Positions 1 through 37,639 of a DNA stretch of 40,812 nucleotides are shown here, one piece after another. The notes below the pieces were generated by a model that saw only the letters and a list, made by a program, of their open reading frames with translations, searched no databases and was not told where the DNA came from. The position numbers were made by a program, and so were the translations under genes. The DNA comes from an uncultured Candidatus Saccharibacteria bacterium. Its GTDB lineage: Bacteria; Patescibacteriota; Minisyncoccia; Phycocordibacterales; EsbW-18. The stretch is taken from positions 1 to 40,812 of the forward strand of contig CAZMAP010000002.1 of the NCBI GenBank assembly GCA_964564385.1, read 5' to 3'. Each line of letters begins with the position of its first letter. Position 1 is the first letter of the stretch.

Positions 1-37
1 CCAGAGAAGGTCAGGGGTTCGAATCCCTTAGCGCCCA
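1..37 (+). tRNA. 3' fragment of a tRNA (window starts inside the gene; isotype not determinable)
   Basis: T-arm AGGGG(13-17)/TTCGAAT/CCCTT(25-29), acceptor 3' strand AGCGCCC (30-36), discriminator A37. No CCA is encoded. Confidence 0.7.
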
Positions 38-232: not shown

Positions 233-238
233 ACGGTT

Positions 239-2457: not shown

Positions 2458-2539
2458 GCCCAGGTGGCGGAATTGGTATACGCGTATGCTTGAGGTGCAT
2501 ATGCCGCAAGGCTTGGAGGTTCGAGTCCTCTCCTGGGCA
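2458..2539 (+). tRNA. tRNA-Leu (anticodon GAG), type II with long variable arm, no encoded CCA
   Basis: Acceptor GCCCAGG/CCTGGGC. Anticodon stem TATGC/GCATA with loop TTGAGGT. T-arm GGAGG-TTCGAGT-CCTCT. Confidence 0.88.
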
Positions 2540-2552
2540 CAAAAACAAAGGA

Positions 2553-2585
2553 GCCCCGCAGTATGCGGGGCGACTTTTGTTTCGC
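2553..2585 (+). terminator. tRNA trailer terminator
   Basis: GCCCCGC-agtat-GCGGGGC plus a T-run, embedded in ACAAAGGAGC...GCGACTTTTGTTT. The same frame follows the first tRNA at 38-85. Confidence 0.7.
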
Positions 2586-2616: not shown

Positions 2617-3000
2617 ATGGATTCTCATTGGTCGGAAAAAATTACTGGAGCGGTTGGCTCTACAACGTCAATCATTGTGCACACGCTCTTTTTTGTGGCG
2701 GCGTTTGCGCTGGTGCTCTTTGGTGTTCCGTTCGATCGAGTTCTTCTTGGTCTTACCACAATTGTCTCGCTCGAAGCCATCTATCTCTCATTGTTTATAC
2801 AGATGACAGTGAACCGCCACACACAGAGCCTCGAGGAGGTTGGGGAGGATATTGATGAGATTCAAGAAGACATCGACGAGATTCAGGAAGATGTTGATGA
2901 GATTCAAGAAGATGTTGGTGAGATTAATGAAGAAGTCGAAGAGATTGCTGAGGATCTCGAAGAGATTGTCGAAGAGCTCGACCAGGACGAAGAATCCTAA
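2617..3000 (+). CDS. Small membrane protein, DUF1003-like, with acidic heptad-repeat tail
   Basis: Two TM segments and SLEAIYLSLFIQMTVNRH resemble DUF1003. The C-terminus is (EDIDEIQ)n. The start is taken at the ATG at 2617, after the tRNA terminator. Confidence 0.55.
   Translation: MDSHWSEKITGAVGSTTSIIVHTLFFVAAFALVLFGVPFDRVLLGLTTIVSLEAIYLSLFIQMTVNRHTQSLEEVGEDIDEIQEDIDEIQEDVDEIQEDVGEINEEVEEIAEDLEEIVEELDQDEES
2845..2970 (+). repeat. About six tandem 21-nt (7-codon) repeats encoding EDIDEIQ-type heptads
   Basis: The units gaggatattgatgagattcaa, gaagacatcgacgagattcag and gaagatgttgatgagattcaa (and following) were read directly. Confidence 0.8.
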
Positions 3001-3001
3001 T

Positions 3002-4081
3002 ATGTCACTCAAACGACTTACACGGTTTATTCATCGTTACGAAAAACAACTTTCGGTTGCTGCCATGGTCGGCGGTTTCATTCTTGATTCGCTCACACTT
3101 CGGCGCGTTGATCTTTTGGCCGACAATCTTGTCATCATTGTGTATCTTCTCGTTGCGGGTATTTCGATTGCCGCACTTGATCTTCGACATACGCGCATGC
3201 TTACCCATCGGTGGTTCGCATGGATGGTCACCGTTGCGCCGATTGCCATGCAATTCGTCTTCGGTGGTCTCTTTAGTTCATTTGTTGTCTTCTATCTCCG
3301 GAGTGCGTCACTTTCGGCGAGTTGGCCATTCATCGGTTTTCTTGTTGTTATGCTCGTGGGCAACGAAGCTTTTCGTCCCTATTACGAACGGCTTGTTTTT
3401 CACGTGACGGTGCTTTTTCTTGCGGTGCTCTCATACTCGATATTTCTCGTTCCAATCCTCGTTGGTGCTCTTGGAACCCACGTATTTCTCTTGAGTGTTG
3501 TTGTGAGCATTGCGTTCATCACTGCCTTTCTCGCATTTCTTTCGATATTCGCTCCCGAACGCATTCGTGAAGAGCGCGCAACAATTGTTCGCTCGATTGC
3601 GTTCACCATTATTCTTGTTGTGCTCGCATATGCGGCAAATGTCATTCCTCCTATTCCGCTCTCACTCAAAGATTCCGCGGTTGCCTATGGTGTTGTGCGC
3701 GAGGGAGACACCTATCAACTCTCTGTTGAACAGCCGTCGTTTGCCGAGCGTCTCGGTCTCGTTCAGAGCTACAATCGCGCTCCCGCCCAAGGTGTTTCGG
3801 TATGGACGTCGGTCTTTGCTCCTACTGCGCTCTCGATCCCCATCATCCATGTGTGGCAACATCGCGAAGGGGAGACGTGGGTCACTATGAGTCGTATCTC
3901 GTTCCCCATCTCAGGTGGGCGCGACGGGGGTTATCGTGGCTATTCAACCAAGACCAACATACTGCCGGGCGCATGGCGGGTATCTGTGGAGACACCAAAC
4001 GGGCAGGTGATTGGTCGGGTGCGGTTTGATATCACCGACAAGGCGGGGGATGTGGCTGCTGTTTCAACGGAAACCCGCTAG
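3002..4081 (+). CDS. Multi-pass membrane protein with C-terminal DUF2914-like domain
   Basis: The ATG at 3002 follows the upstream stop directly. There are about 7 TM helices, then IHVWQHREGETW...GGRDGGYRGYS...PGAWRVSVETPNGQVIGRVRFDI. Confidence 0.55.
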   Translation: MSLKRLTRFIHRYEKQLSVAAMVGGFILDSLTLRRVDLLADNLVIIVYLLVAGISIAALDLRHTRMLTHRWFAWMVTVAPIAMQFVFGGLFSSFVVFYLRSASLSASWPFIGFLVVMLVGNEAFRPYYERLVFHVTVLFLAVLSYSIFLVPILVGALGTHVFLLSVVVSIAFITAFLAFLSIFAPERIREERATIVRSIAFTIILVVLAYAANVIPPIPLSLKDSAVAYGVVREGDTYQLSVEQPSFAERLGLVQSYNRAPAQGVSVWTSVFAPTALSIPIIHVWQHREGETWVTMSRISFPISGGRDGGYRGYSTKTNILPGAWRVSVETPNGQVIGRVRFDITDKAGDVAAVSTETR

Positions 4082-5505: not shown

Positions 5506-5985
5506 ATGCATAACCCAGAAGGCCCAGCGTCAGCAGACTTCATCGATTGGGAAGCGATCAGAAAGACTGAGGAGTATCGAAAGCACATGGTTGCCTTTCT
5601 CAAGGCGCGACTTGAGGAGATTGCTCATTCGCCCGACTATATCGCGCGACTTCATCGTGCTTTGGAGACGCCACAAAAACCTCTCGAGGATTTTGATAGT
5701 CTCGAAGATTTCATGGATGCTTCTCAAGAAAATGAATTTCGCACCGAGGAAGAACAAGACATAGATGCCGAGATTTTTGCTCTTACGACTATCGGAGAGA
5801 TTGAGGCATACGTTGATGAAAACAAGATAGATTTTGATGTGCAGGAGGAAATCCGAAAATTGGAAGCGACGTATCTCGAGGACCAGCGTCAGCTCGCAGC
5901 GCTTAAAGAAAAGCACCACAGCATGCTGAGCAAGGCGCTCGAATTGATGACTGGCGAGAAAGGCAAAGACCCCGACGTACAGTAG
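5506..5985 (+). CDS. Orphan acidic helical protein
   Basis: 159-aa ORF with a TTGTCC-17-TAATGT promoter-like site at about 5433-5461. No motif recognised. Confidence 0.5.
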   Translation: MHNPEGPASADFIDWEAIRKTEEYRKHMVAFLKARLEEIAHSPDYIARLHRALETPQKPLEDFDSLEDFMDASQENEFRTEEEQDIDAEIFALTTIGEIEAYVDENKIDFDVQEEIRKLEATYLEDQRQLAALKEKHHSMLSKALELMTGEKGKDPDVQ

Positions 5986-6003
5986 GAGAGGCGGGTGTAA
6001 GCC

Positions 6004-7227
6004 TTACTCCAACTCATCCCACACATCGGCATCTTCCTGTCCGTCTATCTTAAAGAGCGCTATGCCGAGCAGGTTGTATTCTTCGGCCAAGTCGATCTTG
6101 TCTTTCATGGCGCCCGCATCACTCCAGGTCACATAGTTGAACACTGCGGCATTGCCGGTTGCGCTTGCATAGGCGAGACTGCGCGCCGCGACGACGAGGC
6201 TCTCGGGAGTGTCTTTGGGGATTGAGAAGTTTGTAATGAACTGCGGTGCATGCTTGATGAGGTCAGAGTACGAGAACGCGAGCTCGCCAGCCCCCGAGCG
6301 GCTCGGCTCGATGTTGTGCTTCTTCATCTTTTTTTCAATCGAGGGGATGTTGAATGCGCCTGCTCGACGATATTCGGCATAGCGGTCAGGAGTTACCAAT
6401 ACCTCGTATTCGTGTCCATATGTGGCGACGCCGAGCACAATCTTGTCTGCGGGGATGGTCTCGAGAGTGAGATTGAGTACGGCGCGTACCCATGCGACGT
6501 CGGAGACGGGGATGTAGGGCGCGCCCTTGTTGGCGTCGTTGAGTGTGATGTCTGCACGCTGTTGGTCGTATGCCATGATGTTCACTCGGTCGCAGTATTT
6601 TGCAATCGCGTCATAGTCATTGGCGTAGGCGAGATCGTCGGGAACGGTGCGGTACAGGTCTTCGGGTGGTGTGCGCGCCTCGATGGTGCACGAGAGGATC
6701 TTGTCTCCGAGCCCTTTCTTCAATTCTTTGAGAAAGAGGGAATAGGAATCTTTGGTTGCTGAGAGTTTTCCTTCGTAGTCAATGTCGATGCCATCGAACT
6801 TTTCTTTTTTGACGACGGAGAGAATCTTTTTGATGTGGTTTGTGCGTAGCGTTTTATCGCTGAGAATGGTGTGAACGAGCGAACCGTTGCTCGTGGTGAT
6901 TGTGGGCACCACCAAGACGTCGTCTTTGCGCGCAGCCGAGAGAAGATTCTTCCAGGCTCCCTTTTTGATGCCCATCAGATCCTTGATGTTGCCGTCGCTT
7001 TGGAGCGCGTAGCCGAAGGGATGGATCATGGACAGGTCGCCGAGATGTTTTTGTGCCGCTTTTGGTGCCCCCGATGTCCAATAGGGAACCCAGCCCGAAA
7101 TCTCAAGGTCTTGTGCTGCAGCGAGTGATGGAAAAGTGCCTACGATGAACGCCACGGCGACGAACATCATCGCCGCCTGTCTGCGCAGGCAGGCATATTT
7201 TTTTGGATGTGTGATGATGATTTTCAT
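6004..7227 (-). CDS. Secreted glycoside hydrolase family 18 (chitinase/peptidoglycan-hydrolase-like) protein
   Basis: GH18 catalytic motif FDGIDIDYEG. N-terminal basic region plus a hydrophobic signal ending in AAAQ. Alternative starts are at 7251 and 7170. Confidence 0.8.
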   Translation of the reverse strand: MKIIITHPKKYACLRRQAAMMFVAVAFIVGTFPSLAAAQDLEISGWVPYWTSGAPKAAQKHLGDLSMIHPFGYALQSDGNIKDLMGIKKGAWKNLLSAARKDDVLVVPTITTSNGSLVHTILSDKTLRTNHIKKILSVVKKEKFDGIDIDYEGKLSATKDSYSLFLKELKKGLGDKILSCTIEARTPPEDLYRTVPDDLAYANDYDAIAKYCDRVNIMAYDQQRADITLNDANKGAPYIPVSDVAWVRAVLNLTLETIPADKIVLGVATYGHEYEVLVTPDRYAEYRRAGAFNIPSIEKKMKKHNIEPSRSGAGELAFSYSDLIKHAPQFITNFSIPKDTPESLVVAARSLAYASATGNAAVFNYVTWSDAGAMKDKIDLAEEYNLLGIALFKIDGQEDADVWDELE

Positions 7228-7290: not shown

Positions 7291-7749
7291 ATGGGTATCG
7301 AAGGAGCACCACACGAGATTCCGCAAGGAGAAACAGAGAAAACACCTGCATCAAAAGAACTTCCACCACACGAGCGCGAGGTTGTGAGTGCACTCAGTGA
7401 TCACTCGGCAGAAGTGGCAGAAATCGTTGGGGCTGATTTCAGTGCTGTTCTCGAAGCGGTCAAATTGTTGGGACCTGGCAATCCAGAGAACAGGAGGCTC
7501 GTTACGGAATGGACGGTGAGGGAAGAGGAGGCCGTGCGTCGGAACACTGAGCGCGAGCCTTTGGCTCGCGCCTCAATTCGGTTCAACATCCAGAGAGCGG
7601 AGCTCTACTTCGCTGCTGGAAACATTGATGGAGCGATTGATTGTCTTTATGACGCTATCGATCAAGCGGCAAATGAGGGTCACGACGATCTTCGTCAGGA
7701 AGCTCAAATGAGGGCTGACTCAGTGACGGCACAGAGTCGCTGGGCATAA
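7291..7749 (+). CDS. Hypothetical protein
   Basis: 152-aa ORF in an intergenic-sized slot. No motif recognised. Confidence 0.45.
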   Translation: MGIEGAPHEIPQGETEKTPASKELPPHEREVVSALSDHSAEVAEIVGADFSAVLEAVKLLGPGNPENRRLVTEWTVREEEAVRRNTEREPLARASIRFNIQRAELYFAAGNIDGAIDCLYDAIDQAANEGHDDLRQEAQMRADSVTAQSRWA

Positions 7750-7812
7750 GGGAATGAATCCGTTTATACTGTGTGAGCAATCCGTAGGAGATTATTTTCT
7801 AACTTTATATCT

Positions 7813-8748
7813 ATGACAAAGAGCCTCTTAACCAAACTTCCTCTCTTCGTTTTTGTGCTCGCAGGTCTCGTGCTTGCACACAATGCCCATGCCGCCGATG
7901 TTCAATGCTCGTTCACACGCGACCTCACGCTCGGTGATACTGGCGAGGATATTCGCTGTTTGCAAAAGTATCTCAACGGGGCAGGATTTACTGTTGCCAC
8001 AACAGGTGTTGGTTCCCCGGGAAACGAAACGAGTCTCTATCGAGAGCACACGGTTGAGGCGGTAAAAAAGTGGCAGACGGCTCGTGGTATCTCGCCAGCA
8101 ACGGGCACCTTCGGTCCTCTCTCGCGCTTGTCGTACACTAAGTCGCTCGCCGCATCCGTTGCCGCCACAACTCCGGCACCTGTCATTGCGGCACCGAGTA
8201 CAACAGTGACAAAGCCGTCGGTCACGACACCGTCATCACAAGAGAATAATGCGCGAACGAGGCTCAAGGCGGCAATCGAATCGCTCGAAGACGCAAAGAA
8301 AGAATTCAATGACGCGGAGGATAACAACGATGATACTGGTGATGCTGAGGACATGATCAATGACGCCAACGAGAGCTTCTTTGATGCTGTTCGTTCGTTT
8401 TTGAAAGACGACTTCACGCAAGCAGTTGATTATGCCGATGAGGCGCGGAATTTTGCCGATGACGCACAAGATGAGATTGATGGCGACGGCGATGACGATG
8501 CCACCGAGAAAGATGCTCGTAAGGCAATCAACAATGCCGAGGATGATATCAGCAACGCAGAAGATGACATCAACCAGGCCGACGACGACGGTGTCAATGT
8601 CAGGGACGCAGAAGATCTTCTCGACGATGCCAACAATCTTCTCGACGATGCCAATGATGCCTTTGACGATGAAGACTGGGACGAAGTGATCGACATCGTC
8701 GACGAGATTAACGATGTCCTCGACGACATCGACAACGAGCTCGATTAA
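7813..8748 (+). CDS. Secreted protein: signal peptide, peptidoglycan-binding domain, Asp-rich acidic tail
   Basis: Signal peptide LAHNAHA. A PG_binding_1-like segment: LTLGDTGEDIRCLQKYLN...AVKKWQTARGISPATGTFGPLS. The C-terminal half is D/E/N low complexity. Confidence 0.75.
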   Translation: MTKSLLTKLPLFVFVLAGLVLAHNAHAADVQCSFTRDLTLGDTGEDIRCLQKYLNGAGFTVATTGVGSPGNETSLYREHTVEAVKKWQTARGISPATGTFGPLSRLSYTKSLAASVAATTPAPVIAAPSTTVTKPSVTTPSSQENNARTRLKAAIESLEDAKKEFNDAEDNNDDTGDAEDMINDANESFFDAVRSFLKDDFTQAVDYADEARNFADDAQDEIDGDGDDDATEKDARKAINNAEDDISNAEDDINQADDDGVNVRDAEDLLDDANNLLDDANDAFDDEDWDEVIDIVDEINDVLDDIDNELD

Positions 8749-8845
8749 GGTTTATTTGTTGCCACGCGATATGCGTGGGGGACAAGAAGGCCCCAAGAGG
8801 GGCCTTCTTTGATATACTTGGAGAAGCTAGCTAAAAAGAACAGAT

Positions 8846-11608
8846 ATGAAACAAAACTCTATTGCTATGGGGGTGCAAACGAAGATGACGAGGCTGTTTC
8901 TTGGTGTTTTTTGTTGTGCTGTTGTGCTCGCTCTCTTTCCTGGTGTGTCACAGGCCGCTACAGCTTTGGACTCTATTCCCGATGCGGTGAAGAGTCAATA
9001 CACATTCAATGGTTCGATTTATGCGGCTGTCAGTGACGGGAACACCCTCTATGTCGGCGGCGAATTCACATCGGTGGCGCTTTCATCGCCCGGAGATCCG
9101 GTCGAGTATGAGCGCACACACATCGCGGCGATCGACCTGTCAACGTATACCCTCACCACTCTCGATACGGTGCTTGATGATGCGGTCCGTTCTCTTGAGC
9201 TCGCATCAGATGGCACGCTCTATGTTGGCGGTGATTTCTCGACGGTTGATGGCGCAGAAAATCCTTTTCTTGTCGCTCTCAATACAAGCACGGGGGTTGC
9301 ACTGTCTTCTTTTGCATCAGCACCGGATGCCTCGGTTGTTGCTCTGGCACTCTCACCTGACGAGTCGGTTCTCTATGGTGGTGGGGGCTTCTCAACCCCA
9401 GCCTCGAATGTTGTTGCATACACAACCTCGGACAGGACGGAGACTGCTTTTAGTGCACAGGCGGACCTTTCGGTTAGGGCGCTTTCAGTATCATCTGACG
9501 GAGCGTCGCTCTATATAGGAGGCGATTTCACCAAGGTGGGAGGAGAAATTCCCCAGATCGGCATAGCTCGTGTTGATGCGGATACGGGCGTGTTGGACGG
9601 CTCGTTCGCCTCTGCGCTTTCGGGCGGCAGTATATACGGCATGCAGCTTTCTTCGGATGATGGTGTGCTGTATGTGGGTGGCGATTTTGACACCTTCTTC
9701 ACACAAAGCGGCGAGGGAGCAATCTTCAATGAGACAACAAAAGCATTTGTAGCATCTCCAAAAGTTTCGACGCAGGCTGGGGGAGGCGATGCAACAATTT
9801 ATGCGGTGATCCCGGACGGTGATGGAGGGTGGTATATCGGAGGAAGTTTCACTCACGTGGGAAACACGGCACAGGCGCGGCTCGCGCACATCACTGCTGC
9901 AGGAGCGCTCGATACGAGCTTCGATCCTGTCATCAACAACGGACAGGTGAACGCATTGGAGCTTTCGCTCGACGGTACAGTGCTCTATGCGGGCGGATCG
10001 TTCAACCAGGTCGAAGGGGTGGCACATAGGCACGTTGCCGCATTCTCGACGGCAACCGGCGCGGCTACGGCGTTCGATCCCGATCCCGATGCAACAGTTC
10101 GTGATCTTGAGCTTTCGTCCGACGGCGATACGCTCTATATAGCGGGCGATTTCAGTGCGGTGGCGGGAGGCAGTCGCCACGGAATCGCGGCGTTCGATGT
10201 GGGGACCGATGGCTCGCTTCTAGCGTTCGACGCCGATCTCTACGGCGCTGGGTATGCCATCGAGCTGTCGGCCGATGATTCTGTTTTGTATGCTGGTGGA
10301 AATTTTACGAGCGTCAAGTATGGTGCTGGGCCCGGGACGCTCCGAGACCGCATCGCGGCATTTACCACGGCTGGTGCAGGGGCAGTGACGGCTTTTAACC
10401 CAGGCGCCGACAGCATCGTGCACGACCTCCTTCTTTCGGGGGGCGGAGGGACTTTGTACGCGGGAGGAGAGTTCTCTGTTGCAGGAGGTGAGGCGAGAGG
10501 ACGTTTTGCGGCACTCGATACTGTAACGGGCAGTTCAGCGGGCCTTTCTGATATTGGTATCACGGGAGGTATCGCAGCGGTCTTTTCAATGGGGGTCGCG
10601 TCAGATGGAGAGACTGTGTACCTTGGTGGAGATGATTTCGCTGAGGTCGGCGGCGTGGCGCGAACGCGTTTTGCCGAAATCGATGCGGCGACAGGAGCAG
10701 TGACAAGCTTTAATCCTGCTTTTGATGATACGGTGTACGCTGTTGCTGTTGATGCAAGCGCTGGGAGACTTTATGTGGGCGGCAGCTCGTCGGGGTTCGG
10801 GTTCGAGACAGCTTCAAAGATTGTTGCAATCAACACAGCTGACGGCTCGTTTGTCTCTAGCTTTGCACCAAGCGCGAACAATACCGTGCGCGTACTCAAG
10901 CTTTCGCCCGATGACACGATTCTCTATGCCGGCGGGCTTTTTACCGACATCTCGAGCACGGCGCGCAACTATCTTGCCGCACTCGATACATCTGACGGTT
11001 CACTAACGGCATTTGACCCGTCGGGGACGTTCTCGGTCTATGGCATGTCGCTTGCGCCGGATGACTCGGAATTGTATGTGGGGAGTTTTGATGACGGCGA
11101 CGCCATGGCGTCTGACCTGCTCATCTTTGATGCAGATGGAGATGCTGGCGGGGCAGGTGATGACGATGATGACGACGGTTCGGGGGGCGGTGATACGGGG
11201 AGCAGTGGCTCGAGCCGCCGCGGCGCCGCGCACTCAACTCAGGGAAACAGTCGCCTTTTCTTCCTTCTCGAAAGACTTCGCGATCTTTTGAGAGAGCTCG
11301 TCAGTATAGGGGGGACGATTCCTCCGGGCGCGGAGCAGTATCTCATGGATGATAGCGTTGGGAGTGCATGCTCGTTTGGGCGCGATCTCACGCTTGGTGA
11401 CAGAGGAAATGATGTGATCTGCCTTCAGAAGATTCTCATCACGCGTGCGGTTGGCACCGCTGGGCAGGCGCTGGGAGCCAATGGCGCAACAGGATTCTTT
11501 GGTGCTCTCACACAAGCGGCTCTTACTGAGTTTCAGGCATCAGTGGGTATCACGCCGTCGGCTGGGTACTTTGGTTCTGTGACTCGCGCATACATGAGCA
11601 CGCTTTGA
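8846..11608 (+). CDS. Large secreted beta-propeller repeat protein (delta-60/DUF5122-like repeats) with C-terminal peptidoglycan-binding domain
   Basis: At least 12 repeats of the type V.AL.LS.DG..LY.GG.F..V.G..R..IAA.D..TG....F.P, a poly-Asp linker, then LTLGDRGNDVICLQKIL...LTEFQASVGITPSAGYFGSVT. Confidence 0.8.
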   Translation: MKQNSIAMGVQTKMTRLFLGVFCCAVVLALFPGVSQAATALDSIPDAVKSQYTFNGSIYAAVSDGNTLYVGGEFTSVALSSPGDPVEYERTHIAAIDLSTYTLTTLDTVLDDAVRSLELASDGTLYVGGDFSTVDGAENPFLVALNTSTGVALSSFASAPDASVVALALSPDESVLYGGGGFSTPASNVVAYTTSDRTETAFSAQADLSVRALSVSSDGASLYIGGDFTKVGGEIPQIGIARVDADTGVLDGSFASALSGGSIYGMQLSSDDGVLYVGGDFDTFFTQSGEGAIFNETTKAFVASPKVSTQAGGGDATIYAVIPDGDGGWYIGGSFTHVGNTAQARLAHITAAGALDTSFDPVINNGQVNALELSLDGTVLYAGGSFNQVEGVAHRHVAAFSTATGAATAFDPDPDATVRDLELSSDGDTLYIAGDFSAVAGGSRHGIAAFDVGTDGSLLAFDADLYGAGYAIELSADDSVLYAGGNFTSVKYGAGPGTLRDRIAAFTTAGAGAVTAFNPGADSIVHDLLLSGGGGTLYAGGEFSVAGGEARGRFAALDTVTGSSAGLSDIGITGGIAAVFSMGVASDGETVYLGGDDFAEVGGVARTRFAEIDAATGAVTSFNPAFDDTVYAVAVDASAGRLYVGGSSSGFGFETASKIVAINTADGSFVSSFAPSANNTVRVLKLSPDDTILYAGGLFTDISSTARNYLAALDTSDGSLTAFDPSGTFSVYGMSLAPDDSELYVGSFDDGDAMASDLLIFDADGDAGGAGDDDDDDGSGGGDTGSSGSSRRGAAHSTQGNSRLFFLLERLRDLLRELVSIGGTIPPGAEQYLMDDSVGSACSFGRDLTLGDRGNDVICLQKILITRAVGTAGQALGANGATGFFGALTQAALTEFQASVGITPSAGYFGSVTRAYMSTL

Positions 11609-13184: not shown

Positions 13185-13213
13185 TTGACAAAGTCGACCA
13201 AAAGGCCTATAAT
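13185..13213 (+). promoter_or_regulatory. Perfect-consensus sigma70 promoter TTGACA-17-TATAAT
   Basis: TTGACA at 13185-13190 and TATAAT at 13208-13213. It is followed by a ~140-nt leader with the hairpin GGTTAGTT..GCTTTTA...TAAAAGC..AACTAACC. Confidence 0.7.
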
Positions 13214-13363: not shown

Positions 13364-14008
13364 ATGGCAAGCAAGCATGCCCCGAACGTCCTGATCTCGG
13401 CAGCGGGATGGCTGATGCAGTTCGTCAGTCTCCTGATCAAGGGCCTTCTGGCCCGGGGCTGGGACAGCGAGCGCATTCACGCGCTCGCCACCGACAAGGG
13501 TGCGGCGGACATGGAGCGCCTCGTCGAGGCGGTTCTCAACGCTTTCGCTGCGCCGCTGGCTCCCGTGATCGATCTCGCAACCGGCATCTGCCGATTTACG
13601 GTCGACTTCACGAAGACGCTCGAGGAGATGATCGCCGCCGGGAAGTACGACTGGCGGAACAACGTCATCACCTCACAGCTGTTCCCCATCGTCGGGAACG
13701 GTACGGTCGTCGTGGACGCCAAGCTGTTCCACTTCGGCCGCAGTACCACTTCCAACGAAGTCGAGCGCGAGCTCGAAACCGCCGGATACCGTTCGGCGAC
13801 CATCGCGGAACTCCTGGCTTTCGGGGCATCGTTCCCGGAAGTCCAGCGACAGTTCCCGGTGATCGCTCTCGGCTCCGTCACGAAGGTCAGTGGCGGCCGC
13901 AGCGTCCCGTGCCTCGTCCGGCACGGCGCGGAGCGGAGCCTCGACCTCGACTGGCGCGGCCGCGTCTGGGGCGACGCCTGTCGGATCCTGGCCGTTCGCA
14001 TCAAGTAG
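13364..14008 (+). CDS. Orphan protein, GC-rich cassette, paralogue family P (copy 2)
   Basis: SD AAGAGGAG lies upstream of the ATG. The C-terminal segment ATIAELLAFG...FPVIALGS...VPCLVR...DWRGRVWGDACRILAVR resembles copies 1 and 3. The overlapping ORFs in other frames are R/P-rich high-GC artefacts. Confidence 0.65.
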   Translation: MASKHAPNVLISAAGWLMQFVSLLIKGLLARGWDSERIHALATDKGAADMERLVEAVLNAFAAPLAPVIDLATGICRFTVDFTKTLEEMIAAGKYDWRNNVITSQLFPIVGNGTVVVDAKLFHFGRSTTSNEVERELETAGYRSATIAELLAFGASFPEVQRQFPVIALGSVTKVSGGRSVPCLVRHGAERSLDLDWRGRVWGDACRILAVRIK

Positions 14009-14069
14009 TTCTCTGGTTCTTGACCCTTTGCTTCGCCGTCAGGCGAATAGCACTCGGGTCTTGGACCTT

Positions 14070-14110: not shown

Positions 14111-14111
14111 A

Positions 14112-14610: not shown

Positions 14611-15522
14611 ATGCAAGAGCAAGTGCTGGGGACACAACATCCGCTTGAGGGCCGTTTGTTCAGCCGGAGGACCTTTTCCAACTGGAAGGGGCGACTGGAA
14701 AAGGCGACGGAGGTAGATGAGATGGTGAGCCTGCTTTATGGTGGGTTCAGGCTCCACTCCTTGTCTCACGACGAGGAGAATGAGCGCCTTATCATCTACT
14801 TGAGTTATGCAGATGGTGGGCAGAGTAATCCTGCGAACGAGATAACCGAGAAGGCGTTTGCGGAACTTTCTCGCGTGTTCACGCTTCCGAAGGCCGGATC
14901 GGATAAGACACAGAGAATTATGTACTGGTTGTATCGGCTCTCCGAGCGTGATGTCTTCGGTAAATTCCTCTGGTTCTTCGATCCAAAACGTAACAACATC
15001 CCGCCTCGGTTCAGTCGGAGTCAGGCGCAAGGTGTTGTTGCAGAGTTTCTCGAGACGGTTCTTTCGGCACTGTCTCGCTGGGGTGACTACATTAGCCGCC
15101 CTTTGAATGTGGCTCAACTTTCTCACTACGAAGAGAGCGCCGTGATGTGGTCGGAGGCTCGCACCGCAATCATGGACATCATGGAAAGAAACGGCACTCT
15201 GCGTTCTCTCCACCCTGGACTGTGGAGGAAGGGCCCGACGCGACGCCATCTCAAGCACATGGCGTGCCGGAGTGTCTTTGGGTATTCCAAAGTCTCCGGC
15301 CCGATTATGAACGATTTTCTCTTGGCGCACGCACTCAAGGAAAACAACCAGGCAGCGTGGATCCTTGCCCGAGAGCATTTCGAGAGAAAACTGCGCGCCA
15401 GAGAGCTCTGGAAAGAGCGGAATGCGCGTCGTCGGGAGAGGAAGACGACGCTTCTGTCTGAGGTCAGGGAAGCGGAGGTTCGGCTCGAACTGGCACGAAG
15501 ACGAGTCGCGGGTCTTTCTTGA
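14611..15522 (+). CDS. Orphan protein (303 aa) with basic coiled-coil C-terminus, GC-rich cassette
   Basis: The ATG at 14611 is preceded by GGAAAGGAG. A promoter-like TTGACT(14528-14533)-16-GAGAAT lies upstream. No motif recognised. The antisense 299-aa ORF was rejected. Confidence 0.6.
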   Translation: MQEQVLGTQHPLEGRLFSRRTFSNWKGRLEKATEVDEMVSLLYGGFRLHSLSHDEENERLIIYLSYADGGQSNPANEITEKAFAELSRVFTLPKAGSDKTQRIMYWLYRLSERDVFGKFLWFFDPKRNNIPPRFSRSQAQGVVAEFLETVLSALSRWGDYISRPLNVAQLSHYEESAVMWSEARTAIMDIMERNGTLRSLHPGLWRKGPTRRHLKHMACRSVFGYSKVSGPIMNDFLLAHALKENNQAAWILAREHFERKLRARELWKERNARRRERKTTLLSEVREAEVRLELARRRVAGLS

Positions 15523-15667
15523 TCTACGGACCCTCCTGCAGTTCTTTTTTGGCTTGTCGGCAGGTTCGTCGGATTCTGGCTCGTCATTGACTGGCCTCCC
15601 GAGAGCCTCGTTCTGGTTCTGACGTCTCCTTTGGAGTCGTGAACCTAGTCTTCGACCTAGTTTTCTT

Positions 15668-15735
15668 GGGCACTACCGCCTACCACACCCGTTGGTGTAT
15701 CAGCGGGAGCCTCGCAGCGATGCGGGGCTTTTTGT
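15668..15735 (+). repeat. ~70-nt double-hairpin element, copy A
   Basis: GGGCACT.CCGCC.ACC...CCCGTTGGTGTATCA.CGGG.GCCTCGCA....TGCGGGGC + T-run. About 80 percent identical by eye to 25496-25567. Differences fall in loops or preserve pairing. Confidence 0.75.
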
Positions 15736-15795
15736 ATCTCAACACCACACACCATCTTCTTTTTTGCAAAACTGATACAATAAAGTGCAAAGCAT

Positions 15796-23676: not shown

Positions 23677-24783
23677 ATGCCTCAGTCACTCTCATCACTC
23701 GGCGAAATCAAAGGAAAGCGCGGTCTCGTTCGCGCGCCGTTCAACGTGCCCATGGACGGTGCAACGATACGTGATACGACGCGTATTGATGACTGTGCAT
23801 CAACAATCGATTTTCTCGTTCATGCCGGCGCGCGTATCATTTTGGTGAGCCACCATTCCGACGGCGCAGAAGTTTCTCTCAAACCTGTTGCCGAGTATCT
23901 CTCGAAGCGCGTCCCCGTTGTTTTTGTTGATGATATCTTTTCATATACAGGAAACGACACGATTGTCCTTGCTGAGAACCTGAGGCGATATCCAGAAGAA
24001 GAAAAGAATGATCCCGCGTTTGCAGCACGGCTTGCGGCACTTGCCGACATCTATGTGAATGATGATTTTACGTCGGCGCACCGCACACACGCATCAGTTG
24101 TTGGTGTCCCCAAGCTCATTCCCGGCGTTGCAGGGTTTTCATTTCAGCGTGAGTACGAGGGGCTCTCAGCGTTTGCGTCACCGGCTGCTCCATCACTTGC
24201 AATCATTGGTGGGGCAAAACCTGAAACCAAACTTCCGCTCATTGCAAAGATGGCCGAACGATTCACAAGTGTTTATGCGGGGGGTGTCTCGGCCAACGTG
24301 CTTCTCGAAGATAGGGGAGAGGAGATTGGCGTTTCGGAGACCGCCACGAAGAACATTCCTAATCTTGATGCAATCACCGCCGACGAGCGTATTGTGCTTC
24401 CCGTGGATGCTCGTATTGTTGGGCCTGGCGGTGCGACACGTATTGGTTCCATTACGAGTGTCAAAAAAGACGAGTCAATCGTTGACGCTGGCACCGAGAG
24501 TCTCGCGGACCTTCGCGGTCTCATTGCGCGCTCGCGCACCATTGTCTGGAACGGTCCGCTCGGCGACTATGAGCGGGGCCACGGCGAATCGACGCACGAA
24601 CTTGCGCAGATGCTCATGACTTGCGATGCCGATGTCATCGTTGGTGGAGGAGATACACTTGCATCCATCAAAGATATCGATACCTCGGGTGCGTTTGCGT
24701 TCGTCTCCGAAGCGGGTGGTGCCATGCTCCATCTCTTTGCCTATGGAACGCTTCCCGCAGTAGAAGCGCTCGAGAACCATTGA
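23677..24783 (+). CDS. pgk: Phosphoglycerate kinase (short form, 368 aa)
   Basis: RAPFNVP, DFTSAHR, IIGGAKPETK, WNGPLG and VGGGDT motifs. Confidence 0.9.
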   Translation: MPQSLSSLGEIKGKRGLVRAPFNVPMDGATIRDTTRIDDCASTIDFLVHAGARIILVSHHSDGAEVSLKPVAEYLSKRVPVVFVDDIFSYTGNDTIVLAENLRRYPEEEKNDPAFAARLAALADIYVNDDFTSAHRTHASVVGVPKLIPGVAGFSFQREYEGLSAFASPAAPSLAIIGGAKPETKLPLIAKMAERFTSVYAGGVSANVLLEDRGEEIGVSETATKNIPNLDAITADERIVLPVDARIVGPGGATRIGSITSVKKDESIVDAGTESLADLRGLIARSRTIVWNGPLGDYERGHGESTHELAQMLMTCDADVIVGGGDTLASIKDIDTSGAFAFVSEAGGAMLHLFAYGTLPAVEALENH

Positions 24784-24808
24784 CGCAACTTTGGAATAAG
24801 CATACTGT
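24780..24808 (+). promoter_or_regulatory. Promoter-like TTGACG-17-TACTGT overlapping the pgk stop
   Basis: TTGACG at 24780-24785 and TACTGT at 24803-24808. Confidence 0.45.
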
Positions 24809-24907
24809 GTGCGCGGACGTGGTCTCTGAAACGGACACAAACAAATCAGTGGGCTCTGTCCCACACGGCCAATGGCCGAAACTTCGAGGGAGAAGGAGAA
24901 AAGATCT

Positions 24908-25489
24908 ATGGATCTCGTAAAGGAGTTGTTGGAGGGGGTGCTGCTAGCGGTGTTTCTTGCCGCACTCGTCATGCCGATCGTTTTCTGGATTCGGCGCCGG
25001 CGCAAGAAGACCAACCCAATCCTCGTTCGTTTGTACGAGAACGAGGAGATCGTGGTTGGCTCGACCACAGGTGAGGAGACAATCGCGAAGGCACGGCATG
25101 TCTTTGCTGGGTATCTCGACTCCGATTTCGAGCGCTGGGGCGCGAATGTTCCGAGTGGAACACCAACTGAACGGGCCAAGATCGCGGTGTATGAGGTGTG
25201 TCGTGATGCGAATTTGGCCGAGATGTTCGGTTCCATCGGCAATTTGAATTCGCACGCACTCTCTCAGGGGCAGATCCTCCGCTTCGTTCTGGAGCATAAC
25301 GACAAGTTGCAACCAGACGAACTTGCCACGTTCTTTCTCCTTCGGGTGGGGAGCGGGTTTCTGGTTGTGCGAATTTCCAAATTGCGGGGGGAGCTCGTGG
25401 AGCGACTTGAGCGTTTCGACGACCCAACTATCTGGAGGGGTGCGGGCCGGCGTCGGGTGGTCGTTGTCAAGGCTGGGTCGTCCAAGTAG
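24908..25489 (+). CDS. Orphan protein, GC-rich cassette, paralogue family P (copy 3), N-terminal TM anchor
   Basis: SD GGAGAAGGAG lies before the ATG at 24908. N-terminal LLAVFLAALVMPIVFWIRRRRKK. The C-terminal NLAEMFGSIG...QILRFV...TFFLLRVGSGFLVVRI...WRGAGRRRVVV aligns with copy 1. Confidence 0.65.
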   Translation: MDLVKELLEGVLLAVFLAALVMPIVFWIRRRRKKTNPILVRLYENEEIVVGSTTGEETIAKARHVFAGYLDSDFERWGANVPSGTPTERAKIAVYEVCRDANLAEMFGSIGNLNSHALSQGQILRFVLEHNDKLQPDELATFFLLRVGSGFLVVRISKLRGELVERLERFDDPTIWRGAGRRRVVVVKAGSSK

Positions 25490-25495
25490 TTCCTC

Positions 25496-25567
25496 GGGCA
25501 CTTCCGCCCACCTCGCCCGTTGGTGTATCAACGGGTGCCTCGCACGTTGTGCGGGGCGCTTTCGTTT
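25496..25567 (+). repeat. ~70-nt double-hairpin element, copy B (includes the terminator)
   Basis: See 15668-15735. Hairpins CCCGTT-ggtgtatc-AACGGG and CCTCGCA-cgttg-TGCGGGG, then CGCTTTCGTTT. Confidence 0.75.
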
Positions 25568-25602
25568 AATGGCCGATGCGTTGCCTCCGTAGGCGGGCGA
25601 TA

Positions 25603-25631
25603 TTGACGTATTGCAGATTTTGTAATATCAT
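25603..25631 (+). promoter_or_regulatory. Promoter-like TTGACG-17-TATCAT
   Basis: TTGACG at 25603-25608 and TATCAT at 25626-25631. Confidence 0.45.
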
Positions 25632-25667
25632 TTTTTCGAACCTGTTCGTTTAGAGAGGAGGAAGAGG

Positions 25668-25865
25668 ATGGGCAACCAAGGAATTTCTTTTGACGAGGGA
25701 CGTGGGGAGTTTGTTCTTCGTGATCTCGCGGGGAACACAACATACTATTCCGTCCGCGCGATGCAGCAGATCGTTCGCGAAGCGAACATGATCTTGCTCG
25801 GTCTTGCCGACGCGCCCCCGCCCACTCGTCGTGGCGGTGTGAAGGAACCCATCGTACACCACTGA
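25668..25865 (+). CDS. Small orphan protein (65 aa), own promoter and terminator
   Basis: SD AGAGAGGAGGAAGAGG lies before the ATG, and a terminator CCCCGCAC/GTGCGGGG lies at 25873-25906. The FV.R...G......A...h.E...hL pattern is shared with 26028..26237. Confidence 0.55.
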   Translation: MGNQGISFDEGRGEFVLRDLAGNTTYYSVRAMQQIVREANMILLGLADAPPPTRRGGVKEPIVHH

Positions 25866-25948
25866 CGGCCTAGCCCCGCACAAAACGTGCGGGGCGTTGT
25901 ATTTGTAAAACGCGCTTTTTTGAAGTGTTTTGTTGTGTTTGCATTGCA

Positions 25949-25977
25949 TTGACCGCTGACACGCGTCTGTGTATCCT
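25949..25977 (+). promoter_or_regulatory. Promoter-like TTGACC-17-TATCCT
   Basis: TTGACC at 25949-25954 and TATCCT at 25972-25977. Confidence 0.4.
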
Positions 25978-26027
25978 CGTGGCAGATGTTCACATTCGCG
26001 CATCGCGCGGAAAGGAGTGAAAACACA

Positions 26028-26237
26028 ATGAGTACGGATCGCAACGGTCCACGCGTGGCGTACCACTCTCGGGAGAAGATGTTCGTTGTTCGTGGCGACG
26101 ACGGTCGGCCCATTCGCCTCGACCGTTCGGGTGCCGAGGAAGTGCTCATGGAGCTCGGCCGGATGCTGGGAGAGGAGCGTGCTCTTGATGCGCGTTTGGC
26201 GCAAATAAAGCTCCTCGACACTATCTGCCAAAAGTGA
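26028..26237 (+). CDS. Small orphan protein (69 aa), weak paralogue of 25668..25865
   Basis: SD GAAAGGAG lies before the ATG at 26028. The similarity to the neighbouring small ORF is judged by eye. Confidence 0.5.
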   Translation: MSTDRNGPRVAYHSREKMFVVRGDDGRPIRLDRSGAEEVLMELGRMLGEERALDARLAQIKLLDTICQK

Positions 26238-26245
26238 TGTAGACG

Positions 26246-26512
26246 ATGCGACCCGCAAAGGTCGTCGTTCTCGAAAGGTCGGTGAGGCTTTCTCCAAAGC
26301 AAAAGGAGGAGTGCCGCCAATACGAGAGTCTCGTCAAGAGGATGTCTGTTCGGCAGCTTACTCGAGCAGAAATCGAGTTCCTCGATAAGCACGAGAATAC
26401 ATGCCTAGGACGACATTCGGCTCGTGCTCACGAGCGGGCGCTCGGTCTCACCCTTGGTGCCCTTGATCCTGGTGGAACGAGCGACCCGAAGAAGTTGCGC
26501 TCTGTCCGCTAA
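26246..26512 (+). CDS. Small orphan protein (88 aa), same transcription unit as 26028..26237
   Basis: It starts 8 nt after the upstream stop and has no SD of its own. A terminator lies at 26520-26555. Confidence 0.4.
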   Translation: MRPAKVVVLERSVRLSPKQKEECRQYESLVKRMSVRQLTRAEIEFLDKHENTCLGRHSARAHERALGLTLGALDPGGTSDPKKLRSVR

Positions 26513-26565
26513 TCAATAACCCCGTCTCGCTGTGCGCGAGGCGGGGTGCGTTTTTGTGGCGGCTT

Positions 26566-26961
26566 CTAGTGAAGTCTCTTTTTGATCTCGTCTCTCACTT
26601 TGTTGAGCTCTTCGGGTGTTGCGGGTTTTGCTCGTTCAGGGTTGAGCTCATGTCCGTGGTTGATTGGAACGAGGTGGAGGTGGGCATGTGCGATGCCGAA
26701 TCCTTCGATGGCGAGACCTGTTCGTGTTGTTCCCATTGCTTCTTTCAAGATTGGGGCAAGGAGTCGTGCAACGTCGAACATCTGTCCATAGAGGGGTTGT
26801 GGAACGTCAAAGAAATGGTCCACGTGTTTCTTGGGAACAATGAGCGTATGGCCGGGGTTTATCGGCTTTATATCTAGAAAGGCTACACTGTTCTCGTCCT
26901 CGTAGAAGATATCTGCGGGAATTTGACGAGAGGCTATTTTGCAGAAGATACAGTCATTCAT
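26566..26961 (-). CDS. HIT family (histidine triad) protein
   Basis: CIFCKI, NPGHTLIVPKKH and the HAHLHLVP triad. Confidence 0.92.
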   Translation of the reverse strand: MNDCIFCKIASRQIPADIFYEDENSVAFLDIKPINPGHTLIVPKKHVDHFFDVPQPLYGQMFDVARLLAPILKEAMGTTRTGLAIEGFGIAHAHLHLVPINHGHELNPERAKPATPEELNKVRDEIKKRLH

Positions 26962-29802: not shown

Positions 29803-29830
29803 TTGACACACAGCGCTTTTTTGGTATAAT
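29803..29830 (+). promoter_or_regulatory. Extended -10 consensus promoter TTGACA-16-TGgTATAAT
   Basis: TTGACA at 29803-29808 sits in the loop of the mscL terminator. TATAAT is at 29825-29830, with TG at 29822-29823. Confidence 0.65.
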
Positions 29831-29879: not shown

Positions 29880-30359
29880 ATGAAGAACAGCAAGATGTTG
29901 CTGTGGGCGTTCATCGTGAGCGCCTGCATCACCATCGTGCAGTTTGCGATGGTGGCAATGGGGGCTGGGGAGGTCGCGTGGATCGGAGTGGTCGGGGTGG
30001 CGGCACTCACCGTCATCACGGTGTACATGCATCGGCCTGAGGGTCCAAGCATCGTACTCGCCATGTTTTCCGTGGCGGGACTGATCCTCGGTGGTGTGTT
30101 TCAGCTGGCGGGGAAAGAAGGGGTTCTCTTTGCTGCGGCGGCGCTGGTCGTGGCGCTGTTTGTGGAATCGAGGGCTTTGACTATGAGGAGCCGTCTCGAT
30201 GGTGCTCAAGGCCTCATGCTCATGCTGGGCATGATCATCGGGTGGCAGGTTAGCGCCACCTGGACGCTCATTCTCCTCGTTTCCTGGGTGTGGGCGCTCT
30301 TCCAGGAGCACCGCCGTGCCGCCAGGTGCGCACTCCCCACGGCTTCGACAGGTACCTGA
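29880..30359 (+). CDS. Orphan 4-TM membrane protein, GC-rich cassette
   Basis: SD GAGAGGAAGGAAG. Four hydrophobic helices. A terminator CCCCGCC/GGCGGGG lies at 30390-30431. Confidence 0.6.
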   Translation: MKNSKMLLWAFIVSACITIVQFAMVAMGAGEVAWIGVVGVAALTVITVYMHRPEGPSIVLAMFSVAGLILGGVFQLAGKEGVLFAAAALVVALFVESRALTMRSRLDGAQGLMLMLGMIIGWQVSATWTLILLVSWVWALFQEHRRAARCALPTASTGT

Positions 30360-36379: not shown

Positions 36380-36772
36380 ATGATGGAGAAAGATTTTAGC
36401 AACTGGCACAGAAAGAAGTCGTGGATCCAAAAAGACAAGGTCAGACCCTTCTTTCATGAGCAAGAAGTCTGGTTTGCTTTGGTGGGTTCGAATGTGGGGT
36501 TTGAGCAGGATGGAAGAGGAAAAGACTTTCTGCGGCCCGTCATTATCGTTAAAAAGTTTAATGATTCGATAGGTTGGTGTTTGCCTCTTACAAAAAAGAA
36601 GAAATCAGGTGAATACTATTTTGTTGTGACACATGGAGGTGGAGTCATCAGCACAGCTATCCTGTCCCAGCTCCGTCTCATTGATGCAAAACGTCTTCTC
36701 TATCAATCAGGAAATGTGATGGATGCTGATTTTGAACAGATAAAGAAAAGGCTCACTCGATTTCTCGAATGA
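36380..36772 (+). CDS. PemK/MazF-like toxin-fold protein, no adjacent antitoxin ORF
   Basis: EVWFALVGSNVGFEQDGRGKDFLRPVIIVKKFN...CLPLT resembles the PemK-like family (WW.NLG.N.G.EQ.G....RPVL+LKKFN). Confidence 0.5.
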   Translation: MMEKDFSNWHRKKSWIQKDKVRPFFHEQEVWFALVGSNVGFEQDGRGKDFLRPVIIVKKFNDSIGWCLPLTKKKKSGEYYFVVTHGGGVISTAILSQLRLIDAKRLLYQSGNVMDADFEQIKKRLTRFLE

Positions 36773-37206: not shown

Positions 37207-37639
37207 AAGCTCCAAATTCCATGGTCACAAAATCCAACTAAATTCCAATGACTGAAACCCAAAACAAAAAGCCGTATGATCTCGGGGAAAGAACGTTTGC
37301 TTTTGCAAAAGAAATCCGCGAGATTTGCAGGGTTACACCAAAAACACCTCTTAATATTGATGATATAAAGCAGCTCGTTAGATCTTCGGGTTCAGTCGGA
37401 GCTAATTACATCGAAGCGAATGAAGCGCTCTCAAAGAAGGATTTTATCCATAGGATTGGGATATGCCGAAAAGAATCGAAAGAGAGCGGGTACTGGATCC
37501 GTCTATTGTTTGGTGATGATCAAAAGGCAAAAGACATGTTTCAGGAGTCAAAAGAGCTCGTAAAGATATTCAATGCTATTATTATGTCTAAGAAATAAAT
37601 TGGTTTTGGAATTTAGTTGGATTTTGGAATCTGGAGCTT
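37207..37639. mobile_element. Four-helix-bundle gene cassette bracketed by ~35-42-nt terminal inverted repeats
   Basis: 37229-37248 is the perfect reverse complement of 37606-37625 (20 nt). 37207-37220 pairs with 37626-37639 with one mismatch. The left arm has an 8-nt bulge. Confidence 0.6.
37248..37598 (+). CDS. Four-helix bundle protein (23S rRNA intervening-sequence protein family)
   Basis: FAFAKEI......LVRSSGSVGANYIEANEA.SKKDFIHRIGICRKESKES.YWIRLL is typical of the family. Confidence 0.8.
   Translation: MTETQNKKPYDLGERTFAFAKEIREICRVTPKTPLNIDDIKQLVRSSGSVGANYIEANEALSKKDFIHRIGICRKESKESGYWIRLLFGDDQKAKDMFQESKELVKIFNAIIMSKK

Follow-up and report, generated by a model that had tools for sequence, protein, structure and literature searches.

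What occupies the 1.8 kb between the pgk gene and the HIT gene of an uncultured Candidatus Saccharibacteria bacterium (Genome Taxonomy Database lineage Bacteria; Patescibacteriota; Minisyncoccia; Phycocordibacterales; EsbW-18), and where does it come from? The DNA analyzed here, called the window below, is the whole 40,812-nucleotide stretch of contig CAZMAP010000002.1 (positions 1 to 40,812, forward strand; GenBank assembly GCA_964564385.1). An earlier note, made from the letters of the window, had described the segment as a GC-rich island of three transcription units with four orphan open reading frames (ORFs). We propose, with a probability of roughly 0.72, that it is an accessory islet of three cassettes, the first of which (ORF 1, product P3) would carry a protein decoupled from the diversity-generating retroelements (DGRs) that diversify its relatives; the other two encode small ORFs of 65, 69 and 88 amino acids (o65, o69 and o88).

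An insert at the junction of two convergent genes

The pgk gene (23677..24783, plus strand; Pfam PGK, 3.7e-84) converges on the HIT gene (26566..26961, minus strand; Pfam HIT, 2.4e-19), beyond which come RecJ, RNase H and MscL. Two metagenome-assembled genomes (MAGs), L004 and L007, labelled Candidatus Parcubacteria and Patescibacteria group, are collinear with the window from PilB to ComEC, and their pgk genes are 81-82% identical to that of the window. In L007, pgk (7408..8514) and the HIT gene (8511..8903, minus strand) overlap by the palindrome CTAG, which serves as both stop codons, and in L004 the same slot holds an unrelated insert of 0.43 kb with a 112-aa ORF. Alignment with these two genomes bounds the insert by the codon for the final residue of pgk (His, 24778..24780) and by the CTAG of 26566..26569, and the pgk TGA of the window comes with the insert. 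The island read by the earlier note is thus a real insert, and since L007, checked as a candidate empty site, lacks the segment, it is not backbone in all relatives.

All four ORFs lie on the plus strand at the positions previously given for them. The GC-rich character of the islet is marginal: its GC content (0.561) is higher than the sliding-window mean of 0.524 (sd 0.029), but 11% of equal-sized windows reach as high a value. Its GC content at third codon positions (GC3) is 0.58-0.68, vs 0.51-0.52 in the flanking genes. No integrase, tRNA or flanking direct repeat was found at the insert site, and Rfam, searched at a permissive threshold, gave no match over the whole islet. Further, pgk|HIT is the largest of four variable slots in the collinear backbone, together with 479-aa gene|tpiA, RecJ|RNase H and MscL|ComEC; it holds three cassettes, and the other slots likewise hold small lineage-specific genes. 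Comparison of these sequences supports the view of the segment as a lineage-specific accessory islet of separate plus-strand expression units.

Putative expression signals and small ORFs of cassettes 2 and 3

Promoter-like sites were scored as matches out of 12 hexamer positions, with a scan threshold that excludes 8/12. Sites with 9-10 matches number 37 in the 40-kb window vs about 27 expected and, because matches of this quality are common, the promoter calls rest mainly on placement. Across units 2 and 3 the scan returned exactly the two promoter-like sites and the two intrinsic terminators that the earlier note had placed there (Table 1). Both terminators fold well; in the 20-40 kb half of the window, that of unit 3, which lies opposite the 3' end of the HIT gene converging on it, ranks first and that of unit 2 third. 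The promoter assigned earlier to unit 1 is present as sequence over the pgk stop but falls below the scan threshold; alternatively, ORF 1 could be expressed by readthrough from pgk, which has no strong terminator.

Coding potential was assessed by a codon log-likelihood and compared over six frames; 20 secure window genes served for training, and most of these score 0.10-0.33 per codon. The called frame was the best of six for all four ORFs, with per-codon scores of 0.13 for ORF 1, 0.15 for o69 and 0.02 (0.018) for o88, next to that of o65 in Table 1, and the two long antisense ORFs (25650..26297 and 25745..26392) had negative scores. The purine tract of 16 nt as a Shine-Dalgarno (SD) sequence, the three small ORFs and the 8-nt spacing between the o69 stop and the o88 start can be read directly from the sequence, as they had been before. 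On one Logan contig of this organism, o65, o69 and o88 are all recognized by an independent gene caller, and o88 remains uncalled on two other Logan contigs (L089 and L090) despite identical DNA there. Each of the three proteins forms a 90%-identity cluster of size 1 among about 15 billion sequences, and none gave more than chance-level hits in Pfam, PHROGs, NCBIfam, PADLOC, PDB sequences, INPHARED or IMG/VR; the same holds for o69 and o88 in PLSDB plasmids, and o88 has no relative in a database of 5.8 billion clusters. The weak similarity that had been proposed between the 65-aa and the 69-aa protein does not rise above chance, as BLASTP yields no alignment and 31% of shuffles reach the Smith-Waterman score of the pair.

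Could the small ORFs be no genes at all, and units 2 and 3 decaying mobile-element remnants or non-coding transcripts, with ORF 1 alone functional? The singleton status of all three, the lack of any relative of o88 among 5.8 billion clusters, its near-zero codon score and inconsistent gene calls, and the chance frequency of promoter-like hexamers are all compatible with this. Against it, o65 and o69 score within the range of bona fide genes in the best of six frames, each is preceded by a strong, correctly spaced SD, both units end in high-quality terminators, and no Rfam family covers the region. We consider this explanation rather unlikely for the segment as a whole. From their SD sequences, codon scores and terminators, o65 and o69 are probably real small proteins, and the coding status of o88, with its weak coding signal, is uncertain.

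The layout of unit 3 had also been likened to a toxin-antitoxin or immunity pair. According to this proposal, o69 and o88 form a type II toxin-antitoxin or toxin-immunity pair, in which o69 neutralizes the basic o88 and autoregulates the promoter-like site at 25949..25977. The bicistronic arrangement behind one promoter-like site and ahead of one strong terminator, the typical sizes, the very basic o88 (isoelectric point 10.2) and the location in a strain-specific islet speak for this, and the window has a recognizable MazF/PemK toxin elsewhere (36380..36772). However, no toxin, antitoxin or DNA-binding domain was detected in Pfam, NCBIfam, PADLOC, PHROGs or PDB sequences (E<=0.1), neither protein has relatives in the databases searched, and the downstream partner has a codon score near zero, no SD and no gene call on L089 and L090. 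Thus the 8-nt bicistron without a recognizable family stands as described, but nothing specific favors the toxin-antitoxin interpretation, which we hold to be improbable. A regulatory or small-binder role for cassettes 2 and 3 would be a guess.

ORF 1 and a large Patescibacteria protein family

ORF 1 most likely starts at 24908, judging from its sequence context, although gene callers prefer the in-frame ATG at 24872, which would give 205 aa. Its product has an N-terminal transmembrane helix (residues about 2-31), the basic stretch RRRRKK and a domain of 150 aa. No match was found in Pfam, PHROGs, NCBIfam or PADLOC. A word-indexed search of the 5.8 billion clusters had returned only a 99% identical copy, so that ORF 1 passed as an orphan, and this was overturned by exhaustive HMMER searches. 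With phmmer, 1233 of 1.84 billion representative proteins matched at E<=1e-3 and 548 at E<=1e-10; the matches span residues about 36-187 at 27-49% identity, with top non-self E-values of 2.5e-32 to 1e-31, and a family hidden Markov model (HMM) recovers ORF 1 at 5.7e-55. The family proteins are typically about 220 aa long, and some have two or three tandem domains (P0013, P0016 and P0024). Their consensus reads ILxRLY..E.I..GATDG.ETIA.A..VFTGYLD.DF.NWGT...T....V.VYE...DATF..MFGSLG..LD.L.LTQ.QII.FC..HR.KLR..GYATFFLFKV..E.FVAxVxVxxGxLxAxVxRFxxxxVWxAxxRxRVVVPQL, and in a 62-sequence alignment that includes P3 the residues G55, F66, Q120, Q122, T141, F143 and V153 are invariant. In the profile search, 249 proteins are named, where sources name them at all, only 'hypothetical protein' and come mostly from Patescibacteria/Parcubacteria MAGs; none carries a Pfam domain. 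By sequence, ORF 1 is a bona fide member of this large Patescibacteria family. The label of four orphan ORFs consequently stands for o65, o69 and o88, which stay singletons, but not for ORF 1 with its more than 1200 relatives.

The earlier note had also called ORF 1 the third copy of a family within the window; BLAST, phmmer and the family HMM give no other copy there. The 214-aa ORF at 13364..14008, considered as a paralog for a C-terminal beta-rich pattern seen by eye, was rejected by BLASTP (E 21), phmmer and the family HMM. In a distant relative (L084, 3359..6648), a family member directly follows PGK-DHHA1-RNase H, in another slot; the resemblance to the neighborhood in the window may be a coincidence or may point to a preferred region.

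The biology of the family is apparent from its other genomic locations. On locus L088, a family member lies directly upstream of a bAvd gene and a reverse transcriptase gene (RT; RVT_1), and a 117-nt repeat connects a variable region (VR, 5543..5659, the last codons of the member) with an intergenic template repeat (TR, 5998..6114). Of 15 VR/TR differences, 13 are at adenines of the TR, which has AAC or AAT at eight codons; it is this placement that identifies the repeat as a DGR signature. We fetched 80 further metagenome loci with the family profile, making 84 with four earlier ones. In these loci, 88 members are full-length, and a further 44 HMM matches cover the C-terminus only, of which 43 are TR-like and one (L092) resembles a split gene; the TR-like matches lie on the same strand as the member, a median of 312 nt after its stop. 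For 40 members the sequence extends 3 kb or more downstream; a TR is present in 20 of these, an RT in 19 and an Avd in 19. Across 39 distinct VR/TR pairs, TR adenines account for 676 of the 790 mismatches (86%). Further, codons of the form NNY (any two bases, then a pyrimidine) make up 97% of the nine variable positions in members with a local TR and 94% in members without one, vs 60% at other positions. The value of 94% without a local TR implies that many copies are remote or recently diversified targets. On this sequence evidence, the family is a DGR variable-protein family of Patescibacteria with the usual order target gene, TR, Avd, RT.

Two family members stand in tandem or close to one another on L086 (5001..6338) and on L094, L100, L123 and L159; on L094 and L123 a single TR downstream of both members suggests one DGR serving two adjacent targets. 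A cellular DGR clade ('clade 2') restricted to Patescibacteria has been described, and its targets are reported usually to lack recognizable transmembrane or other conserved domains (Roux et al. 2021, PMC8144416). Very probably the family belongs to this target set.

Loss of DGR hallmarks in the copy of the window

Alignment of ORF 1 to the family with hmmalign allowed the codons at its nine variable positions to be read out: CGA, TCC, TTG, GGG, GTG, CGA, GAG, ACT and AGG. Only two of nine are NNY, the lowest value of 89 members, vs 94-97% in 73 other members, and several (GAG, TTG, GTG, CGA, AGG and GGG) are impossible to obtain from an AAY template, in which Y is a pyrimidine. The C-terminus of P3 reads RRRVVVVKAGSSK, without the VVVPQL end that is conserved in the family; P0007, with the end ...VVVLLAGVVNP, is a candidate for another decoupled, membrane-anchored copy. 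When the 40.8-kb contig is translated in six frames, the family HMM (positions 180-220) detects no TR and no second family copy; TRs in other loci score 1e-9 to 1e-20 with the same region of the model. In a blastn search of the islet against the window only the 3' hairpin element matches. Likewise, tblastn with the RT and Avd of L088 finds neither in the window below E 0.1, and Pfam detects no RT among the window ORFs scanned. The VR-equivalent region is identical in the window and in contigs L002 and L003, which are consensus contigs (three independent samples in all). The nearest relative, P0003 on L091, is 49% identical to P3 and keeps 8/9 NNY codons with an RT fragment adjoining, so that the decoupling appears specific to the lineage of the window. 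Cumulatively, on these sequences the copy of the window is decoupled from DGR machinery as far as the contig goes, and presumably also in the genome.

Keeping in mind that members without a local TR are common, we also weighed whether ORF 1 is an active remote target, diversified in trans by an RT, Avd and TR on another contig. ORF 1 is a member of the family, half of the members with enough flank have no local TR and yet are 94% NNY, so that targeting from a distance, or recent loss, is common in the family, and two stem-loops are retained in its 3' flank. In the DGR of Bordetella phage, retrohoming is aided by stem-loops located downstream of the VR (PMC3240598). What speaks against a remote target is the codon record itself, with 2/9 NNY and six codons out of reach of an AAY template, the loss of the conserved 3' end (CCG CAA CT, encoding PQL), and the invariance of the VR-equivalent region across samples at the level of consensus contigs. 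This leaves continued diversification in trans with little credence. Weaker still is the notion of a prophage or integrative-element remnant, for which presence/absence polymorphism, the slightly raised GC3 and an 80-nt element common to the islet and an orphan-rich region at 13.1-15.8 kb might be cited, and which we judge very improbable in view of the missing integrase, direct repeat and tRNA, the absence of hits in IMG/VR contigs, INPHARED phages and PHROGs, the appearance of three independent cassettes and the other insert in the same slot of L004.

Table 1. Features of the islet and related elements in the window
Feature	Position	Strand	Remarks
Insert (islet), ~1.8 kb	24781..26565	+	from alignment with L007 (empty site) and L004 (other insert)
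Weak promoter-like site TTGACG-17-TACTGT, unit 1	24780..24808	+	8/12; overlaps pgk stop; below scan threshold
ORF 1 (P3), 193 aa	24908..25489	+	ATG with SD GGAG 9 nt upstream; codon log-likelihood +24.5
ORF 1 region equivalent to DGR VR, residues 150-185	25355..25462	+	hmmalign to family, codon read-out
80-nt repeated element across ORF 1 stop	25478..25557	+	hairpin 1, 25516..25535; hairpin 2, 25537..25557
Promoter-like site TTGACG-17-TATCAT, unit 2	25603..25631	+	10/12; from scan
Purine tract AGAGAGGAGGAAGAGG, 16 nt, putative SD	25652..25667	+	directly before o65 ATG
o65, 65 aa	25668..25865	+	singleton; top codon score of the four (0.21 per codon)
Predicted intrinsic terminator, unit 2	25873..25895	+	9-bp stem, 8 GC pairs
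Promoter-like site TTGACC-17-TATCCT, unit 3	25949..25977	+	9/12; from scan
o69, 69 aa	26028..26237	+	SD GGAAAGGAG at 26011..26019; singleton
o88, 88 aa	26246..26512	+	isoelectric point 10.2; no clear SD; weak coding signal; singleton
Predicted intrinsic terminator, unit 3	26519..26547	+	12-bp stem, 9 GC pairs, z = -4.3
Second copy of the repeated element	15652..15728	+	80% identity over 80 nt, E 8e-13

Predicted membrane anchor and fold of P3

The transmembrane anchor that had been ascribed to ORF 1 is borne out by the predicted N-terminal helix, which AlphaFold2 also models confidently. A hydrophobic N-terminus occurs in only about 5% of 263 family proteins, and that of P3 is among the strongest. 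Basic residues flanking a transmembrane helix mark the cytoplasmic side (the positive-inside rule), and RRRRKK after the helix would accordingly place the domain on the cytoplasmic face. We thus infer that the P3 domain is membrane-tethered and faces the cytoplasm.

An AlphaFold2 model of P3 was built with the 62-sequence family alignment. It shows an alpha/beta domain after the transmembrane helix, with a predicted local distance difference test (pLDDT) score of 91.5, a predicted template-modelling score of 0.79 and blocks of 94-97 over the VR-equivalent region, which forms a beta-hairpin (150-159 and 162-169) plus the last strand (183-187). A single-sequence model of ORF 1 (pLDDT 43) was informative for the transmembrane helix only and was left out of the fold search. 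Foldseek of the P3 model against PDB and BFVD returned nothing at E<=1e-3, with template-modelling scores of at most 0.21, and the family profile has no match among PDB sequences. Divergent C-type-lectin-fold variants are known to escape structure-similarity searches, and the order in which the elements of the model follow one another would loosely suit a very divergent variant of this kind. The family-invariant residues, the model and the positive codon score are consistent with P3 still being a folded, expressed protein.

A repeated double-hairpin element at the end of unit 1

The earlier reading that unit 1 ends in a shared double-hairpin element agrees with the second copy listed in Table 1. 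Each copy folds into a pair of hairpins with a T-rich run behind them, and in the islet CTTTCGTTT comes after hairpin 2; probably the element is the terminator of unit 1, as its sequence suggests. The second copy is located ~130 nt after an unrelated 303-aa orphan ORF, just upstream of pilB, and its homology starts ~15 nt ahead of a TAG aligned to the stop codon of ORF 1. No HMM signal marks the region upstream of it (15520..15650) as the remains of a family member or as a TR. A hairpin plus T-run is likewise present in the 3' flanks of other family members, and alignment with the nearest relative gives only loose similarity, which led us to drop the idea of a conserved DGR cis-element. A widespread mobile repeat was likewise discarded, as no exact matches to hairpin 1 were found in IMG/VR or JGI metagenome contigs.

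Four of the five short-read Logan contigs (L001-L003, L089 and L090) end in or just beside the element. Nearly all differences between the window and these five contigs, which come from four samples, lie at 25466..25577, in and around it; two of them, V187L and S191L, are non-synonymous and fall within the final seven codons of ORF 1. Contig breaks and clustered differences are what is expected of a repeat, and the differences suggest that copies of the element have exchanged sequence or that the repeat was mixed up in assembly. The Logan contigs are at least 99.6% identical, with too few differences for a ratio of non-synonymous to synonymous substitution rates (dN/dS).

Other variable slots and features of the window

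Between the 479-aa gene and tpiA, L004 (6366..7040) and L007 (5822..6454) carry homologous ORFs of 210-224 aa (4.5e-51 mutual); the window has a gap of 32 nt there and no counterpart. The RecJ|RNase H slot of L007 contains a 189-aa ORF with a relative in L005 (3e-10). In the MscL|ComEC slot of the window lies a hydrophobic ORF of 159 aa (29880..30359), preceded at 29803..29830 by a putative promoter with a perfect extended -10 consensus; L004 and L007 lack this ORF and have about 100 nt at that position.

A second orphan-rich region extends from 13100 to 15760, between a SIMPL-like gene and pilB, and is closed by the second element copy. It holds a perfect consensus promoter sequence (TTGACA-17-TATAAT, 13185..13213), the 214-aa ORF mentioned above (GC3 0.84) with a very stable compound hairpin behind it (z = -6.2), and the 303-aa ORF (14611..15522). 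Each of the two ORFs is a singleton without a match to any family, and the latter, considered as a hidden RT, found no support in Pfam, NCBIfam or tblastn.

The MazF/PemK toxin noted above is a 130-aa ORF (Pfam PF02452, 9.9e-07). Within 37228..37626, a 116-aa '23S rRNA-intervening sequence protein'/four-helix-bundle gene (PF05635, 8e-13) is exactly bracketed by a perfect 21-nt inverted repeat (37228-37248 / 37606-37626). We take the PF05635 family to be related to the Avd accessory proteins of DGRs, and tblastn with the DGR Avd did not match this gene. Tandem repeats of 21 nt (7 codons) at 2831..2977 and 8525..8733 encode acidic stretches rich in D/E, the former where a DUF2914 protein starts (2840..4081) and the latter where a 311-aa ORF ends (7813..8748). 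The contig itself starts inside a tRNA-like 3' end (GGTTCGAATCCC..GCCCACA at 16..52), which resembles the tRNA-Leu 3' end at 2518..2554 and a partial copy at 209..245, and a 42-nt inverted repeat (18-59 / 63-104) follows it.

Discussion

The accessory-islet reading would run as follows. The junction of the convergent housekeeping genes pgk and HIT would be a 'safe' slot at which an islet of three separate cassettes accumulated in an otherwise syntenic backbone. In the family of ORF 1 elsewhere, adenine-specific mutagenesis rewrites some nine codons templated by AAY, which occupy alternating positions of a C-terminal beta-hairpin. In cassette 1, a domain of this family would have left its DGR and lost the NNY imprint and the VVVPQL end, and an N-terminal transmembrane helix with RRRRKK would have been grafted onto it, giving a module of fixed specificity that binds a ligand or a protein and descends from a hypervariable ancestor. 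The promoter-SD-ORF-terminator units of cassettes 2 and 3 would encode three proteins without detectable relatives.

Several points weigh against parts of this reading. The searches for a TR, RT and Avd cover one contig, and it is common for family members to lack a local TR and yet show the NNY imprint. That P3 is a DGR-decoupled derivative with fixed specificity seems a reasonable deduction from the comparison with its relatives; its function as a binder is deduced from the family context, and its topology is a rule-of-thumb prediction. Orphan status of o65 and o69 comes from exact-cluster look-ups and smaller libraries, and o88 may be no gene. Promoter-like hexamers of the quality seen here are frequent in the window, and the promoters are predictions from sequence.

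Should the reading be right, the largest 'orphan' of the islet now has a place, as it derives from a family of Patescibacteria diversified by DGRs, and the islet is otherwise ordinary, one of several orphan-gene slots in the collinear backbone of a member of the candidate phyla radiation (CPR). A DGR-decoupled, membrane-anchored copy would be a natural experiment on what hypervariable binders do once specificity is fixed. Tentatively, and with clearly less assurance, one may go further and see in the family an uncharacterized scaffold other than the C-type lectin and the dominant DGR target of Patescibacteria, often in genes without a DGR nearby. A small, mostly cytoplasmic alpha/beta domain would then present about nine AAY-templated residues on alternating positions of the face of a beta-hairpin, and the copy of the window would be a 'frozen' binder that drifted out of NNY codon space and came to serve as a membrane-tethered protein of fixed specificity. 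The high-confidence model of P3 without a structural match makes it testable whether DGRs always use C-type-lectin folds. Published DGR catalogues, in the parts that treat target annotation, leave most targets without functional annotation (PMC8144416, PMC11661182), and one of them proposes that uncharacterized VR domains probably represent new variants of C-type lectins, with CPR the likeliest case (PMC8144416).

How does the locus compare with known systems? Like type II toxin-antitoxin modules, unit 3 pairs two small neighboring ORFs behind a single promoter-like site and ahead of a single terminator in an accessory region, but o69/o88 have no detectable toxin or antitoxin domain and the downstream ORF is doubtful. 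The C-type-lectin variable proteins (Mtd, TvpA, TaqVP and the archaeal AvpA) likewise have a C-terminal VR in which scaffold residues are interleaved with AAY-templated ones. Their element order is of the kind beta1-alpha-alpha-beta2-beta3-beta4-beta5, with which the order in the P3 model, a beta-strand, three short helices and four strands, is loosely compatible; they differ in that the variable positions of the P3 family alternate on two strands of a beta-hairpin instead of lying in loops. With regard to the DGR targets of CPR bacteria (PMC8144416), ORF 1 is homologous over its whole 150-aa domain to proteins in which the C-terminal ~40 codons are a VR with a cognate TR, Avd and RT; as with the targets characterized in that work, most members of the P3 family have no recognizable transmembrane or Pfam domain. 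The copy of the window differs from them by its strong N-terminal transmembrane anchor, by the lack of a TR, RT and Avd on the contig and of an NNY imprint, and by an end without PQL or anything like an initiation-of-mutagenic-homing (IMH) sequence. Finally, the islet resembles the orphan-gene slots of CPR genomes, in which the differences between collinear relatives are nearly confined to small lineage-specific genes in a handful of intergenic places, and pgk|HIT differs from these in that one of its cassettes appears traceable to a known mobile-diversification system.

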